Below are positions 4,767-13,909 of a stretch of DNA of 13,931 bases, piece after piece. A model generated the notes under the pieces. The model ran no database searches, was not told the origin of the DNA, and worked only from the letters and a program-made list of their open reading frames with translations. Origin of the DNA: a virus (taxonomy: Duplodnaviria; Heunggongvirae; Uroviricota; Caudoviricetes). How positions within the stretch are numbered: the first letter of the stretch is position 1; each line of letters begins with the position of its first letter. The DNA lies in IMG/VR virus record IMGVR_UViG_2728369553_000003; one strand, given 5' to 3'. The translations under genes were made by a program, and so were the position numbers.

Positions 4767-5102
4767 TTATTTTACATCCCAAGGTAGTTCCTCAAGAGAG
4801 AAGACTAATTCATTATCAATGATTTCGTATTCTGCATAACCTTCAACCTCTCCTGAGAAGTTATTGTCAACGCATCCTTCATAATAGCTATATGGTGCTA
4901 TAAAGTGAAACCCATATTCATCTATCTCTGTGATTTCAAAATTGTAGTAATCGTAAGAATATCGAATATCATCATCAGAAATAGAACTAAGTACATAGTT
5001 ATTAAATTTATCGGAATGCTTAACGATAAGCTCTGACAACGCGTCAAGATTCTCTGGAGAGATATTTCCTAACGGTAATCTGTACTCAACGGCATTAATC
5101 AT
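4767..5102 (-). CDS. Hypothetical highly acidic 111-aa protein; moron between the Q-like gene/tR' and the holin
   Basis: ATG at 5100-5102 with a GGAGG 4 nt upstream. AT-rich. About 24 D/E against 5 K/R; no signal peptide or TM. Flanked by its own candidate promoter and terminator. Confidence 0.7.
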   Translation of the reverse strand: MINAVEYRLPLGNISPENLDALSELIVKHSDKFNNYVLSSISDDDIRYSYDYYNFEITEIDEYGFHFIAPYSYYEGCVDNNFSGEVEGYAEYEIIDNELVFSLEELPWDVK

Positions 5103-6053: not shown

Positions 6054-6985
6054 TTACGCCAGTACGCCTATTGCCAGCGCACGATCGATAAAACGAAATA
6101 TCAGCTCCAGCTGGGAACCATACTTCTCTTCAAATGCCACGGTATCCGCATGCAGCTCGTCGTGATGCTTTCTGCACAAAGGCAACACAAAGAGGTCATG
6201 CGCTTTTGTACCCATTCCCCCCTGACCGTGGCCTATCAGGTGGTGGGGATCATCAGCAGGCTTTCCACAACATGCACACGGCTGTGTCTTAACCCAGCGT
6301 GTGTACTTTTCATTAACCCAGCGGCGACGTTTTGGGCGTAACATAAAAGACTCCGGCGACTCCGGATCCACTTTCAGCGCCAGCACCTTTTTCACCTTAT
6401 CCTGGATGATGCTGGTGGCAGGAACCGAAGGCACAAGGTCACTTTCCCGGGTGACAGACGGCACAACAGGCTTCGGTAATCTCAGTGCCTTACGGGCTGC
6501 ACTTTCCGGTAAGGCATCCGCCAGGTCATTACGAATCAGCCACCAGCACAGTTCCGGCATTGTCACAACGTGACTATCATCAAAACCGAGATCCCGACGC
6601 ACAACAGACAACACCCAGCGGGCACAGTTATCCGTTGCCATTGATTCCAGCCGTTCCGTGAACTGATCGCGCAGCTGGTTATCGCAGTGCCAGCACAGAC
6701 GGATTGCGCCCGGCGCGTGTCGCATTGTTGTCATGTTCTCGCTGTGCCAGTCGGAATGAGGCCACTGGCAGCCTTTTTCACGAAGTAACCAGCTTTCAAG
6801 ACATTCCACGCCACCAGCACGACGGATCACTGCCTCATTGCGGAACACGGCCCGAACGTCAGGATCATCCGCCAGCGGTTGTGATGCCGCCGGAACAGCA
6901 CCACTGGCGAAAGATGAATAACGTTCCGGCTCAGGCTCCAGCAGGACACGCCCCTGCATAAACAGGGGCATCAGCTCTGAACCTG
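6054..6985 (-). CDS. DUF968-like protein (N-terminus hidden in assembly gap)
   Basis: Open minus frame from the gap edge to the stop at 6054-6056. C-terminal motif CACCGKPADDPHHLIGHGQGGMGTKAHDLFVLPLCRKHHDELH recalled as characteristic of DUF968 prophage proteins. Probably a separate gene from the KilA-N ORF, though the tracker fuses them across the N-run. Confidence 0.5.
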
Positions 6986-7111
6986 NNNNNNNNNNNNNNN
7001 NNNNNNNNNNNNNNNNNNNNNNNNNNNNNNNNNNNNNNNNNNNNNNNNNNNNNNNNNNNNNNNNNNNNNNNNNNNNNNNNNNNNNNNNNNNNNNNNNNNN
7101 NNNNNNNNNNN
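6986..7111. other. Assembly gap (126 N) hiding the boundary between the KilA-N and DUF968 coding regions
   Basis: Run of N. Confidence 0.95.
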
Positions 7112-7874
7112 GGAATCGGGATTCGAAGAAATGCGGCTGCGTCTCACGCGGATTTGCGGGACTGGTGATATTCTTGCCGAACATGCAGCCTTTCGCTGTC
7201 AGCGACCAGAATTTTTTGATGTTGTTAATCGCTGTACGGCTGTATCGTTCGCGCTGTTCGACGATCCCCAGCTTCGCCATCTGGTGATATGCCTGATTAG
7301 CCGTAAGGCGGATACCATACTGCTTCAGCAGTGCACTCAGTGACAGCGTGGGGCGGCTTGAGCCATCAGGCGCGTCAGCAGGAGCATCAATGGCATAGCG
7401 CGGTGCCAGATTCGGTAAGCCAACAGCCTCCTGAAGTTTCTGACAGGCTCCAAGCACTGAAGAGTTAGACAGATTTAACTCCCGGCGCATAAAGTCCAGC
7501 AGAATCACACCAGCCTGCATCTTGTCAGCAGCCTGTCCGGATAATTTTTCCGGTGCGCTGGTTACCATGTCGAAAGTACGGATCACCTTCAGATGGAATG
7601 ACGGGCTGATCCACATTGCATAGGCATACACCAGTTCTTTGCAGACATACGTCCCCTGGTTATTTCCGCCACGAATAACGTTAACTGGCTCTATATTGAC
7701 CGAGTTGCAAATCTGCAACTCGCTTATTAAACGCTCAGTTTGCTCATTGCGGAGCCAGAATGCAGGCTTATGCTTATCCAGAGAACCGGCAGCCCTGTGC
7801 AGATCGTTCAGGCTGTAACGCCCATAAGCATCACGACGAACTTCAATACCATCAATGACCATCAGATTATTCAT
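7112..7874 (-). CDS. KilA-N domain antirepressor-like protein (C-terminus hidden in gap)
   Basis: ATG at 7872-7874 with a GAGGAG 9 nt upstream. N-terminus MNNLMVIDGIEVRRDAYGRYSLNDLHRAAG... is KilA-N-like, followed by an antirepressor-like C-region. The open frame runs into the N-run. Confidence 0.6.
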
Positions 7875-11971: not shown

Positions 11972-12068
11972 ACGCCCTCCAAACTAAGTTTTATTAGATG
12001 CTAATTACAAATCTATCTTTGGTCAATAAAAACTAAGATTACTTAGCAATTCAAGAAATGGTGCTCCT
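11972..12068. promoter_or_regulatory. OR-like divergent control region with a PR-like promoter and CTAAG-based operator candidates
   Basis: Minus-strand TTGACC-17nt-TAGCAT (plus 11998-12026) upstream of the cro SD. Inverted repeat CTAAG-ATTA-CTTAG at 12033-12046 and a near-copy CTAAG-TTTT-ATTAG at 11984-11997. AACTAAG occurs at 11982 and 12031. Confidence 0.5.
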
Positions 12069-12695
12069 ATGGAAACGGTTGGTCAGCGTATAAAAGCTCT
12101 GAGAAGAGTTACCGGAACGTCCCAGAAAGAATTGGGTAAATTTTGTGGAGTAAGCGACGTTGCTGTGGGGTACTGGGAGAAAGACATCAATACCCCTGGT
12201 GGGGAGGCACTTTCGAAATTAGCGAAGTTCTTCAATACGTCAATAGATTACATTCTTTATGGTGCTGAGTTTGAAGGCAAACTCGTCACAAACATGCGCA
12301 GAGTTCCTGTAATATCGTGGGTTCAGGCTGGGCAGTTTACTGAGTGCAGGGCAGCAGAAGTGTTTAGTGAAGTGGACAAGTGGGTAGATACATCATTAAA
12401 GATTGGTGATAACTCATTTGCATTAGAGGTTAAAGGTGACTCCATGACTAACCCTAATGGCCTCCCAACAATACCAGAAGGCGCAACAGTGATTGTAGAT
12501 CCAGATGCAGAACCTCGTCATGGAAAAATAGTCATCGCTCGACTTGATGGAACAAACGAAGCTACAGTAAAAAAATTAGTCATCGATGGCCCTCAAAAGT
12601 TTTTAGTGCCATTAAATCCTCGGTATCCCAACATCCCTATCAATGGTAATTGCCTTATCATTGGTGTAGTCAAAGGAGTTCAATACGAACTCTAA
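12069..12695 (+). CDS. cI: cI-like prophage repressor (XRE HTH plus S24 LexA-type autopeptidase domain)
   Basis: N-terminal HTH (QKELGKFCGVSDVAVGYWE), Ala-Gly cleavage site (VQAGQF), catalytic Ser in GDSM and Lys in TVKKL. Divergent from cro. Confidence 0.9.
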   Translation: METVGQRIKALRRVTGTSQKELGKFCGVSDVAVGYWEKDINTPGGEALSKLAKFFNTSIDYILYGAEFEGKLVTNMRRVPVISWVQAGQFTECRAAEVFSEVDKWVDTSLKIGDNSFALEVKGDSMTNPNGLPTIPEGATVIVDPDAEPRHGKIVIARLDGTNEATVKKLVIDGPQKFLVPLNPRYPNIPINGNCLIIGVVKGVQYEL

Positions 12696-12777
12696 GACCT
12701 CTCTTCTCTAACTAAGGCACCGAACTAAGAAAAGTTTGGTGTTTTCTCTTGCCATAATAACTAAGTTAAGTTAGATT
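12692..12777 (+). promoter_or_regulatory. OL/pL-like region: three AACTAAG repeats and a TTGCCA-17-TAGATT promoter
   Basis: AACTAAG at 12710, 12723 and 12759; CTAAG also overlaps the cI stop at 12692. Candidate -35 TTGCCA (12749-12754) and -10 TAGATT (12772-12777), with one AACTAAG copy in the spacer. Confidence 0.45.
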
Positions 12778-12879
12778 TTATATCAAAGATAACGAACAGG
12801 CAGGACGCCCACGAAGTAGCCGCCGGTGGCGTATGAATGACCGGATGATTCGTTAAATACTATGTGTAAGAGAGCGCAA

Positions 12880-13083
12880 ATGAACCGTTATTTCACATGC
12901 TCGTTTTGTGGAGCAAACGAGCTGCAGGCAAAAAAAATCATCGCCAAAGGCGGAAAAGATGAAGTTGCTATCTGCTCTGAGTGCGTAGTCTTGTGTGTCG
13001 GGGCATTAATCAATATCAGCACAACTATTCAGTTCACACCAAATGAGAATGCGCCTTTAGATGCGCGGAAATCTGGAGGTTAA
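12880..13083 (+). CDS. Small ClpX-type C4 zinc-finger protein (67 aa)
   Basis: YFTCSFCG...KKIIAKGGKDEVAICSECVVLC matches the ClpX N-terminal zinc-binding domain pattern (CSFCG...ICDEC). ATG at 12880-12882 is preceded by AAGAGAG; the tracker start at 12862 lacks an SD. Confidence 0.6.
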   Translation: MNRYFTCSFCGANELQAKKIIAKGGKDEVAICSECVVLCVGALINISTTIQFTPNENAPLDARKSGG

Positions 13084-13530: not shown

Positions 13531-13909
13531 TTGATTTTCCTTTTATGTATACGGGCTTAAAAGGATACCACCGAGCCTGAAGTGGTGAAAAGACAGGCAC
13601 ATAACAGCTAAGTATTTTCAACCAGAGAGAATCCTTAGCGTTGTGGTGAATGCGGCTCAGCGCACGCGGGTTAAGGTTGAGGCTGACAGTCGACCTTCTG
13701 TGGATACCCACCCGTCTGGTGTGCAACCTTCGCCAGACACCGGGAGGCACCCGGAACCACAACTTTATGCTGTGTGTAGTCTTGACGGTACCAGTTTGTA
13801 CCCTTGCTTCCGGCTGGTACCATCCTTTTTACAAAACAGAGAAGTGATCTTACCCAGCAATAGTGGACACGCGGCTAAGTGAGTAAACTCTCAGTCAGAG
13901 GTGACTCAC

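Follow-up and report, generated by a model that had tools for sequence, protein, structure and literature searches.

The region comprising the cI-like gene and its flanks is, with a probability that we place at about 85%, the switch (immC) by which a temperate phage resembling SfV, e14, and mEp460 controls its immunity, working like P22 c2/cro. The CTAAG motifs on both sides of cI are predicted to be the operators of this switch, as they are conserved across genera, enriched in the sequences flanking cI, variable in step with the recognition helix of the repressor, and homologous to P22 sites. The CTAAG system is an ordinary specificity variant, not characterised before, of the well-known P22-type circuit. 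No binding, footprint, or transcript-start data were found for this immunity type in the searchable literature, and looking up the operators and the leader as literal strings of letters returned irrelevant primer matches only.

Results

The window, the whole stretch of 13,931 nucleotides that was analysed, contains a cI-type repressor gene on the plus strand and a divergent cro-like gene on the minus strand, separated by a 97-bp intergenic control region (Table 1). Matches of the cI product to Pfam HTH_3 (1.1e-10) and Peptidase_S24 (9.2e-28) were obtained. The closest solved relative of its N-terminal domain is P22 c2 (2R1J/3JXB, E 2e-10), and that of its C-terminal domain is the C-terminal domain of lambda cI (E 7.5e-28), with which the autocleavage site (Ala87-Gly88) and residues Ser125 and Lys168 all align. 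The recognition region of the repressor reads GVSDVAVGYWEKD. The closest solved relative of the Cro-like protein is N15 Cro (2HIN, E 8.9e-5).

Table 1. Features of the immunity region and of the adjoining leader RNA.
Feature	Position	Strand	Description
Cro-like protein, 66 aa	11771..11971	-	Pfam P22_Cro 4.4e-11
OR1 (predicted operator)	11984..11997	.	CTAAGTTTTATTAG, 9/10 palindromic
PR (predicted; cro and early-right operon)	11998..12026	-	TTGACC-17-TAGCAT
OR2 (predicted, weak)	12008..12021	.	CAAATCTATCTTTG, 7/10 consensus positions in this window
PRM, alternative candidate	12020-25 and 12044-49	+	TGGTCA, 18-bp spacer, TAGCAA
OR3 (predicted operator)	12033..12046	.	CTAAGATTACTTAG, perfect palindrome; overlaps predicted PRM -10
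PRM -10 (predicted, cI maintenance)	12034..12039	+	TAAGAT; start predicted near 12045
cI-type repressor, 208 aa	12069..12695	+	N-terminal HTH_3, C-terminal S24 autopeptidase domain
AACTAAG copy, not a credible operator	12710..12716	+	Overlaps OL2 if a site
cI intrinsic terminator	12714..12750	+	Core stem CACCGAAC/GTTTGGTG (12719-26 with 12735-42), then T-run
OL2 (probable, degenerate)	12725..12738	.	CTAAGAAAAGTTTG, 8/10; 36 bp upstream of OL1
PL (predicted early-left promoter)	12749..12777	+	TTGCCA-17-TAGATT
OL1 (predicted operator)	12761..12774	.	CTAAGTTAAGTTAG, 9/10 palindromic
Structured RNA, 5' end of PL transcript	12791..12854	+	64 nt; adjoins the operator system, not part of it

The sequence-only reading had counted five copies of AACTAAG in the window, all of them near cI. 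Five copies are indeed located no farther than 87 bp from the cI ORF, and the total is six (at 4985, 11982, 12031, 12710, 12723, and 12759), against 1.25 expected per window; none of 200 dinucleotide shuffles reached six. The additional copy, at 4985, is located 7 kb away within an ORF of unknown function (phrog_13663) and has no palindromic partner; it was discarded as an operator, being probably a chance copy. The functional unit is not the 7-mer but the 14-bp inverted repeat CTAAG-N4-CTTAG (18 bp with flanks), which has an A/T-rich 4-bp spacer (90% A+T in the spacers of the operators versus 68% in the intergenic background). Three palindromes with at most one mismatch were detected, for 0.36 expected in the window, and all three are in the approximately 270 bp flanking cI. 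The perfect palindrome CTAAG-ATTA-CTTAG previously noticed in the cI/cro intergenic region was found at 12033-12046. The copy at 11982 had been overlooked as the left half of CTAAG-TTTT-ATTAG (9/10 palindromic). On the left side, direct repeats without clear palindromes had been described as an unusual array. This description does not hold: the copy at 12759 is the left half of CTAAG-TTAA-GTTAG (9/10 palindromic), the copy at 12723 belongs to the loop of the conserved cI terminator hairpin, and the copy at 12710 is not conserved. What stands of the initial operator hypothesis is the presence of sites on both sides of cI, each set tied to an early promoter; the unit had been mistaken for a 7-mer, a weak OR2 had escaped notice, and the left operator is not a direct-repeat array.

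On the right side, three partly symmetric sites extend over PR and PRM, the central one being weak in this window and clear in relatives. OR1 is located directly downstream from the PR -10 hexamer and spans the predicted PR start, OR2 is within the PR spacer and abuts the -35 hexamer, and the distances between centres are 24 bp (OR1-OR2) and 25 bp (OR2-OR3), for 23 and 25 bp in P22. A CTAAG-type palindrome was found at the position of OR1 with at most two mismatches in all 24 loci compared (see below) and with at most one mismatch in 21 of them. In LLS, whose cI is 90% identical, conservation extends from the first base of OR1, which marks its exact start, to the last base of OR3 and falls off outside. 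OR2 aligns with P22 OR2; its right half is CTTAG in mEp460 and DG341, and in Rahnella the site is a good palindrome, CTAATCTTTATTAG. OR3 aligns with P22 OR3, ATTTAAGATGACTTAACT. RNA folding of the whole OR region revealed no structure above chance (z 0.2 and 0.8), indicating that the OR palindromes are DNA sites rather than RNA hairpins.

Both early promoters proposed by the sequence-only reading were recovered: TTGACC-17-TAGCAT pointing at cro (minus strand, 12026..11998) and TTGCCA-17-TAGATT past the cI stop codon (plus strand, 12749..12777), each of them conserved in relatives. PR and PL match the consensus at 9 of 12 positions each, and four promoter-like matches were found in the region for 3.7 expected, so that such matches are individually not above chance. 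Support for PR and PL comes from conservation and homology to P22. The hexamers of both promoters are kept across relatives at a fixed spacing of 17 bp, and transcription is predicted to begin at about 11991 from PR (minus strand) and about 12784 from PL. For PR, which aligns with the annotated P22 PR, the -35 hexamer GGTCAA is invariant among relatives and the -10 hexamer follows the pattern TA(G/A)(C/T)AT (TAGCAT, TAACAT, TAATAT, or TAGTAT), in which the initial TA and the final AT never change. For PL, the TTG of the -35 hexamer and the whole TAGATT are invariant, and the -35 hexamer is TTGACC or TTGACA in most relatives.

The cI maintenance promoter was absent from the initial reading. In P22, the annotated -10 of PRM is an identical hexamer occupying the equivalent part of OR3; by this homology, we predict that the -10 of PRM is here TAAGAT within OR3. 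This hexamer is invariant in six of six aligned sequences, including two spacer bases that are variable in other operators. With the alternative PRM listed in Table 1, OR2 would lie at -41.5, its position in lambda, in better agreement with a lambda-like activation geometry. TAAGAT was kept as the first candidate because it is favoured by the annotated P22 homology. OR3 is the best consensus match among the sites. If affinity simply tracked the match to the consensus, the first promoter to be silenced by the repressor would be its own; in reality, the sites may be filled in an order set by spacer sequence or cooperativity.

On the left side, OL1 occupies the PL spacer and reaches over the first three bases of the PL -10 hexamer. 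It is invariant in all 13 close relatives, and its geometry equals that of P22 OL1 within TTGACC-17-TAAATT. OL2 lies within the cI terminator hairpin (-14.7 kcal/mol, z -3.7), where it spans loop and 3' arm, and its right half, GTTTG, is fully accounted for by this hairpin. The built-in terminator scan of the window did not list the cI terminator, and folding and pair counts were used instead: among the 13 relatives, 98% of the cells pair, versus 22-40% in slid controls, one compensatory change from C-G to U-A was found in the stem, and a terminator is annotated at the same place in SfV. All but one of the 13 relatives keep CTAAG in the loop, whose other four bases vary (AAAA, TTTA, TAAA). Yersinia, Providencia, Proteus, and P22 have a clear palindrome 33-35 bp upstream from OL1, with a separate terminator where visible. 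OL2 is also tied to OL1 by a direct-repeat family (D1). By virtue of the invariant loop CTAAG and of this positional analogy, OL2 is probably an operator. The copy at 12710 was rejected as an OL3 since it is not conserved and would overlap OL2: mEp460 has AACCAAA and DG341 has AACCAAG in its place, other relatives have it shifted or lack it, and its would-be palindromic partner, CGAAC, has three mismatches.

Comparison with the operators of related immunity types, which had been suggested as a check, was carried out on relatives with other recognition helices and on 24 loci with cI sequences 63-100% identical, spread over some ten genera of enterobacteria (Escherichia, Enterobacter, Kosakonia, Kluyvera, Serratia, Rahnella, Yersinia, Rouxiella, Providencia, and Proteus). 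Palindrome density was 10.5 per kb in the cI flanks versus 0.066 per kb elsewhere, an approximately 160-fold enrichment in which the 24 loci share ancestry and are not independent counts. The half-site varied with the recognition helix of the repressor in three pairings, VGYW with CTAAG, ISQW with TTAAG, and VTGW with GTAGG. Relatives harboring GVSHVAISQWEKE have TTAAG-N4-CTTAA at the OR3 position, and Morganella, which harbors GVNRVTVTGWEKG, has GTAGG-N4-CCTAC. No CTAAG-type site was found in the ISQW- or VTGW-type relatives examined as a specificity control. These pairings suggest that specificity is switched at operator position 3 and at residues 34-35 of the helix. Together, enrichment, helix co-variation, and homology to P22 OR and OL favour the assignment of the palindromes as operators.

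The structured leader of the predicted PL transcript is supported by double compensatory changes in 5 of its 16 pairs (13 distinct copies). It has no match to an Rfam family, and a covariance model revealed no second copy in the window. This RNA is common to phages of other immunity types and is present in about a quarter of E. coli genomes. The PL leader RNA putL of HK022, a two-stem RNA of about 70 nt that follows PL directly and has a second copy, putR, after PR, is similar in size and position (PMC9378689). Homology to HK022 put was tried and not retained, the covariance model giving no hit in the HK022 early region or in P22. P4-style pairing of the leader with the downstream STnc100-like RNA was also dismissed, a repeat search having found nothing convincing. 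The first ORFs after PL encode a 73-residue ClpX-type zinc finger and a 91-residue protein without a Pfam match, and no N-like ORF was recognised.

Discussion

What was directly observed comprises the sites with their conservation and helix co-variation, promoter hexamers kept across relatives, the hairpin of the terminator, and the P22 homology. From these we infer a switch in which actual binding, occupancy order, cooperativity, PRM activation, and transcription start sites are conditional on the model. The 208-residue repressor would bind as a dimer to sites of 18 bp built on the core CTAAG-N4-CTTAG, each helix-turn-helix reading one outer half-site and the central four A/T-rich base pairs presumably remaining uncontacted, as in P22. 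Repressor at OR1 and OR2 would cover the PR start and spacer, turning off cro and the early-right operon, and occupancy of OR3 would cover the -10 hexamer of the cI maintenance promoter, providing negative autoregulation by the repressor or shut-off by Cro. Repressor at OL1, over the PL spacer and the start of its -10 hexamer, would block PL, probably with the help of the degenerate OL2, whose DNA also encodes the cI terminator hairpin. For induction, RecA would stimulate the repressor to cleave itself between Ala87 and Gly88, with Ser125 and Lys168 as the catalytic residues.

Three other readings of the motifs were weighed, two of which concern the left operator. That the unit is the 7-mer AACTAAG and the left operator an unusual array of three direct repeats appears very unlikely. 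Repressors binding direct repeats exist, such as P2 C (PMC2995052), the copies at 12710, 12723, and 12759 do have the same orientation, and direct and inverted repeats are nearly equivalent here, as CTAAG and CTTAG differ at the central base only. Such an array is at odds with the inverted partner of the 12759 copy, which matches at four of five positions with the same N4 spacing as in OR1 and OR3, and with the mutations of the 12710 copy in mEp460 and DG341 despite 99% identical repressors. The spacings of 13 and 36 bp match no regular array, more distant relatives have two or three clear OL palindromes, and the repressor binds DNA through a domain of the P22 c2 type, for which the sites are symmetric. 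The second reading, which we regard as somewhat improbable, limits the operators to OR1, OR3, and OL1, the CTAAG at 12710 and 12723 being just parts of the terminator hairpin. Both copies are within the predicted hairpin, of which GTTTG is the 3' arm, two of the ten positions of OL2 depart from the consensus, and its distance to OL1 differs from the 24-25 bp separating the OR sites. What speaks for an OL2 is the retention of TAAG in the loop of 12 of 13 relatives while other loop bases vary, a constraint that a terminator loop would not impose, and the good palindromes present upstream from OL1 in Yersinia, Providencia, Proteus, and P22.

It is also conceivable, at odds as low as those of the direct-repeat array, that the palindromes are mainly Cro sites or elements of promoter architecture and that the cI-like protein recognises something else. 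The right half-site and its flank form a -10-like hexamer (TAGATT at PL, TAAGAT at PRM) and, for this reason, part of the operator conservation is due to the promoters. Moreover, Cro and repressor normally share sites, which sequence alone cannot tell apart. Against this, the half-site co-varies with the recognition helix of the repressor in three specificity groups, OR1 is conserved although it is outside any -10 or -35 hexamer, and P22 c2 sites occupy homologous positions.

Two features adjoining the operators merit separate consideration. The 24 bp past cI may be used twice, as the cI terminator hairpin in RNA and as OL2 in DNA; if so, a single overlapping stretch would carry the information both for occupancy by the repressor and for ending the mRNA from which the repressor is made. 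The PL leader RNA, in this apparently N-less group of phages, could be a new cis-acting regulator of the early-left operon, put-like or nut-like. Taken jointly, that this dual use and a new regulatory leader add something beyond an ordinary operator set is unlikely.

The CTAAG immunity type was found in 517 of 5,426 complete E. coli genomes (approximately 10%) and in phage mEp460. The present results provide a concrete and testable operator and promoter map for it, of use for predicting heteroimmunity among prophages, for prophage annotation, and for designing orthogonal repressor-operator pairs. The three natural helix-operator pairings enlarge the data on the recognition code of P22 c2-type helix-turn-helix proteins. 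The CTAAG operators leave unchanged the understanding of how such switches work.

Comparison with known systems

The overall logic of the switch is shared with lambda, as are the homologous S24 autocleavage and oligomerisation domain with its Ala-Gly site and Ser/Lys dyad, the tripartite OR with a spacing of roughly 24 bp, and the location of PL downstream from cI on the same strand. In contrast, the lambda operators measure 17 bp, have an odd base pair at their centre, and consist of half-sites unrelated to those found here, the N-terminal domain of the lambda repressor belongs to another helix-turn-helix subfamily, and the lambda PRM transcript is leaderless. The order CP76/YmfL-like genes, cro, cI, terminator, PL, leader RNA, and STnc100-like RNA is that of SfV, e14, ST64B, and mEp460, and the CTAAG immunity itself is carried by mEp460 and two sequenced E. 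coli phages (95-99% DNA identity). SfV differs by a cI only 38% identical with another N-terminal domain, and its operators are accordingly expected to differ. The SfV PR operon also contains a C4/isrK RNA-based immunity element (Rfam), which is absent here: immunity of the P4/P1 C4 type was discarded since an Rfam search of the window found no C4/isrK-like element.

The closest parallel is P22 immC, which comprises c2, Cro, OR1-3, OL1-3, PR, PRM, and PL and likewise has divergent repressor and cro genes, a tripartite OR, symmetric sites of 18 bp whose four central base pairs are an A/T-rich spacer, OL1 in the PL spacer and at the start of the -10 hexamer, an upstream OL site approximately 35 bp away, and an OR-OL distance of approximately 750 bp in both systems. 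The OR sequences align directly, and the OR and OL regions can be aligned base for base with the same spacing. Val31 of this cI is the counterpart of P22 Val33, known as the 'valine cleft' residue. The differences include a cI leader of approximately 23 nt here versus 4 nt in P22, the fusion of OL2 with the cI terminator hairpin, the lack of an apparent gene 24/N homologue or nutL downstream from PL, where a different structured leader RNA is located in the present phage, and early flanking genes of the SfV/e14 type (CP76-type cII, YmfL). The recognition helix is D-V-A-V-G-Y-W here and N-V-A-I-S-Q-W in P22, and the half-site is A-W-C-T-A-A-G here and A-N-T-W-A-A-G in P22, the C instead of T at position 3 being the main base difference. 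With this C and the helix SDVAVGYW, the system falls outside the specificity of P22 c2, which combines ANTWAAG with SNVAISQW. The P22 repressor contacts operator positions 2-7 and 12-17, not the central 4 bp, and a T-to-C change at operator position 3 lowers binding of the wild-type P22 repressor to non-specific levels (PMC4267663). Because position 3 is C, the helix differs, and the P22 repressor binds such sites non-specifically, the CTAAG immunity type is predicted from sequence to be heteroimmune to P22.

A predicted palindromic operator unit flanking cI

The motif AACTAAG occurs six times in the window, against 1.25 expected, and none of 200 shuffles reached six. The sequence-only reading had counted five copies, all near cI. 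Five copies do flank this gene (at 11982, 12031, 12710, 12723 and 12759), and the sixth (4985-4991, plus strand) lies inside an unrelated minus-strand ORF (4767-5102) whose function is unknown and has no palindromic partner; this copy is probably due to chance. Scanning of the window for CTAAG-N4-CTTAG with at most one mismatch detected three sites, against 0.36 expected, all of them in the cI flanks. One of these includes the PL-side copy of the motif, so that the copies past cI are not simply direct repeats, as had been proposed. The true unit is the palindrome CTAAG-N4-CTTAG.

Predicted features of the immunity region and neighboring elements
Feature	Position	Strand	Sequence	Remarks
Cro-like protein, 66 aa	11771-11971	-		P22_Cro family
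OR1	11984-97		CTAAGTTTTATTAG	At most one mismatch
PR-like site	12026..11998	-	TTGACC-17-TAGCAT	Consensus match 9/12
OR2	12008-21		CAAATCTATCTTTG	Weaker; midway between OR1 and OR3, centers 24 and 25 bp off
PRM -10 (predicted)	12034-39		TAAGAT	Within OR3
OR3	12033-46		CTAAGATTACTTAG	Perfect
cI-type repressor, 208 aa	12069-12695	+		HTH_3 and Peptidase_S24 domains
cI terminator (predicted)	12714-12750			Hairpin, then T-run
OL2 (probable)	12725-38		CTAAGAAAAGTTTG	Weaker; 36 bp upstream of OL1
PL-like site	12749..12777	+	TTGCCA-17-TAGATT	Consensus match 9/12
OL1 (PL side)	12761-74		CTAAGTTAAGTTAG	At most one mismatch
PL-leader RNA	12791-12854	+		64 nt
73-aa protein	12862-13083	+		First ORF of the PL operon
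STnc100-like stretch	13610-13833	+		33.6 bits
606-aa ORF	6054-7874	-		PHROGs 129 and 96

Conservation of the predicted operators

In phage LLS, whose repressor is 90% identical, conservation of the intergenic region extends from the first base of OR1 to the last base of OR3, with divergence beyond both ends. The right half of OR2 is CTTAG in mEp460 and strain DG341, versus CTTTG in the window. Genomes were scanned for further loci, which were obtained from Enterobacter, Kosakonia, Kluyvera, Serratia, Rahnella, Yersinia, Rouxiella, Providencia and Proteus (repressors 63-90% identical). CTAAG-type palindromes were kept at the OR1 and OR3 positions in nearly all loci of these other genera. A good palindrome, CTAATCTTTATTAG, occupies the OR2 position in Rahnella, and two or three clear palindromes surround PL in Yersinia, Providencia and Proteus. 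Over 24 loci, the density of sites with no more than one mismatch was 10.5 per kb in the flanks of cI versus 0.066 per kb elsewhere, a difference to be read as a footprint since the loci are related and the counts are not independent. Outside the core, position 1 of the half-site is A in 81%, and the 4-bp spacers are 90% A+T versus 68% for the intergenic background. Two metagenome-assembled relatives (L017, 1011/1060; L026, 935/984) contain a second CTAAG-type palindrome pair about 500 bp upstream of cI, whose members are 49 bp apart, as are OR1 and OR3. This pair could represent an OR that has been duplicated or displaced.

Recognition helix and operator specificity

Our prediction that CTAAG palindromes are read by the cI-like protein is best supported by the co-variation of recognition helix and palindrome. 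The helix is GVSDVAVGYWEKD in this group, which has CTAAG-N4-CTTAG; it is GVSHVAISQWEKE in Photorhabdus and Xenorhabdus, where the palindrome at the OR3 position is TTAAG-N4-CTTAA, and GVNRVTVTGWEKG in Morganella, where it is GTAGG-N4-CCTAC. No CTAAG-type site was found in any of the distant relatives compared, which have different recognition helices.

The closest solved relative of the N-terminal domain is the P22 c2 repressor (2R1J, 3JXB; E 2e-10). Within an 18-bp site, the P22 repressor makes contacts at positions 2-7 and 12-17 and none with the central four base pairs, where A/T is preferred (PMC4267663). The TTAA methyl cleft takes Val33 of P22 (PMC2995052), which aligns with Val31 here. 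Nearby, N32, S36 and Q37 of P22 are replaced by D30, G34 and Y35, residues that would set specificity. Operator position 3 is T in all natural P22 half-sites examined and C in this window; binding of the P22 repressor to a T3-to-C operator is only non-specific (PMC4267663).

Promoters and the OL side

The PR-like and PL-like hexamer pairs described from the sequence are both present at the places given for them. Matches of 9/12 quality are no commoner in the region than expected by chance (4 versus 3.7), and support for the promoters must therefore come from elsewhere. For PRM, the hexamer TAAGAT within OR3 is invariant in the window and in all aligned relatives, including two spacer bases that are free to vary in other operators. 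Since the annotated -10 of P22 PRM is the same hexamer, also in OR3, we place the predicted -10 there. An alternative PRM candidate is TGGTCA-18-TAGCAA (12020-49).

Past cI, the sequence folds into a strong hairpin with a T-run behind it (-14.7 kcal/mol, z -3.7). Pairing in the 8-bp core stem holds for 98% of cells across 13 relatives, versus 22-40% with the partner slid, and one pair displays a compensatory change from C-G to U-A. A terminator is annotated at the same place in SfV, a phage with the same early gene order and a different cI. Taken together, fold, pairing and annotation lead us to regard the hairpin as the terminator of cI. The AACTAAG copy at 12723 supplies the loop and the upper end of the stem and could accordingly be regarded as part of the terminator only. 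Although the four remaining loop bases differ between relatives, the loop CTAAG is kept in 12 of the 13, a conservation that a terminator loop would not require, and the copy is located where the relatives and P22 have their upstream OL site. For these two reasons, we consider it a probable, degenerate OL2 sharing its DNA with the cI terminator. The copy at 12710 was rejected as an operator: its counterpart is AACCAAA or AACCAAG in phages whose repressors are 99% identical, and it would overlap OL2.

Genes and RNA elements around the switch

A CP76-type cII-like gene is next after the cro-like gene on the minus strand. The remainder of this strand has genes for replication and for a Q-like antiterminator, plus a lysis cassette and terminase, indicating that the window represents the early-right and the late part of a prophage of lambdoid style. 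The N-terminal half of the 606-aa ORF resembles a phage transcriptional regulator/antirepressor and its C-terminal half an HNH endonuclease. Two sequenced E. coli phages share the immunity region at 99% identity, mEp460 at 95% and LLS at 77%. Among 5,426 complete E. coli genomes, 517 contain it at nearly full length.

Directly past PL, about 7 nt after its predicted start, begins a conserved structured RNA. It consists of an outer stem and two hairpins, a small GGC/GCC one and a variable one of 5 bp whose loop, GGCRUAUGAAG, is conserved. Double compensatory changes affect 5 of the 16 predicted pairs (13 distinct copies). The RNA matches no Rfam family, and its covariance model has no match in HK022 (put) or P22. 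About 1,400 of the 5,426 E. coli genomes carry the RNA, downstream of several immunity types; SfV, ST64B and SfII have it too. The 73-aa protein contains little beyond a C4 zinc finger of the ClpX type (Pfam zf-C4_ClpX, 1.4e-10) and might act by interfering with ClpX or with ClpX adaptors. Further downstream, an Rfam STnc100 match below the gathering score of 47 takes in the conserved hairpin CCGGGAGGCACCCGG and, after it, AACCA. Since SfV, mEp460 and E. coli DG341 have similar sub-threshold matches (36-41 bits) at the equivalent point of their PL operons, this stretch is probably a diverged STnc100 member. In the PR operon of SfV, a C4 antisense RNA (82 bits) and isrK (64 bits) were detected within the annotated 'immunity region' (orf37; L001 1438-1626, minus strand), in keeping with the RNA-mediated immunity reported for this phage. 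In contrast to SfV, the window has no C4/isrK-like element.

The proposed switch and its relation to P22

The immunity region is predicted to be a P22/lambda-type switch. Repressor would block PR from OR1 and OR2, and PL from OL1 with help from OL2, and OR3 would control PRM. We infer all of repressor binding, occupancy order, cooperativity, PRM activation and transcription start sites. Affinity is not readable from the consensus match alone since the best match is OR3. The C-terminal domain of the repressor is closest to that of lambda cI, and its intact Ala87-Gly88 site, Ser125 and Lys168 predict SOS-inducible self-cleavage. The operator sequences had no occurrence in the searchable literature, and the operator map is therefore new as a prediction.

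The annotated immC region of P22 can be aligned with that of the window. OR3 is ATTTAAGATGACTTAACT in P22 and AAACTAAGATTACTTAGC here, and the junction of OR2 with the PR -35 is CTTTAGTCAA and CTTTGGTCAA, respectively. The OR sites are spaced by 23 and 25 bp in P22 versus 24 and 25 bp, and the upstream OL site is 35 bp from OL1 versus 36 bp. PL is TTGACC-17-TAAATT in P22, differing from the hexamers of the window, and in both cases OL1 spans the PL spacer together with the first part of the -10. We regard the circuit as a specificity variant of a textbook system.
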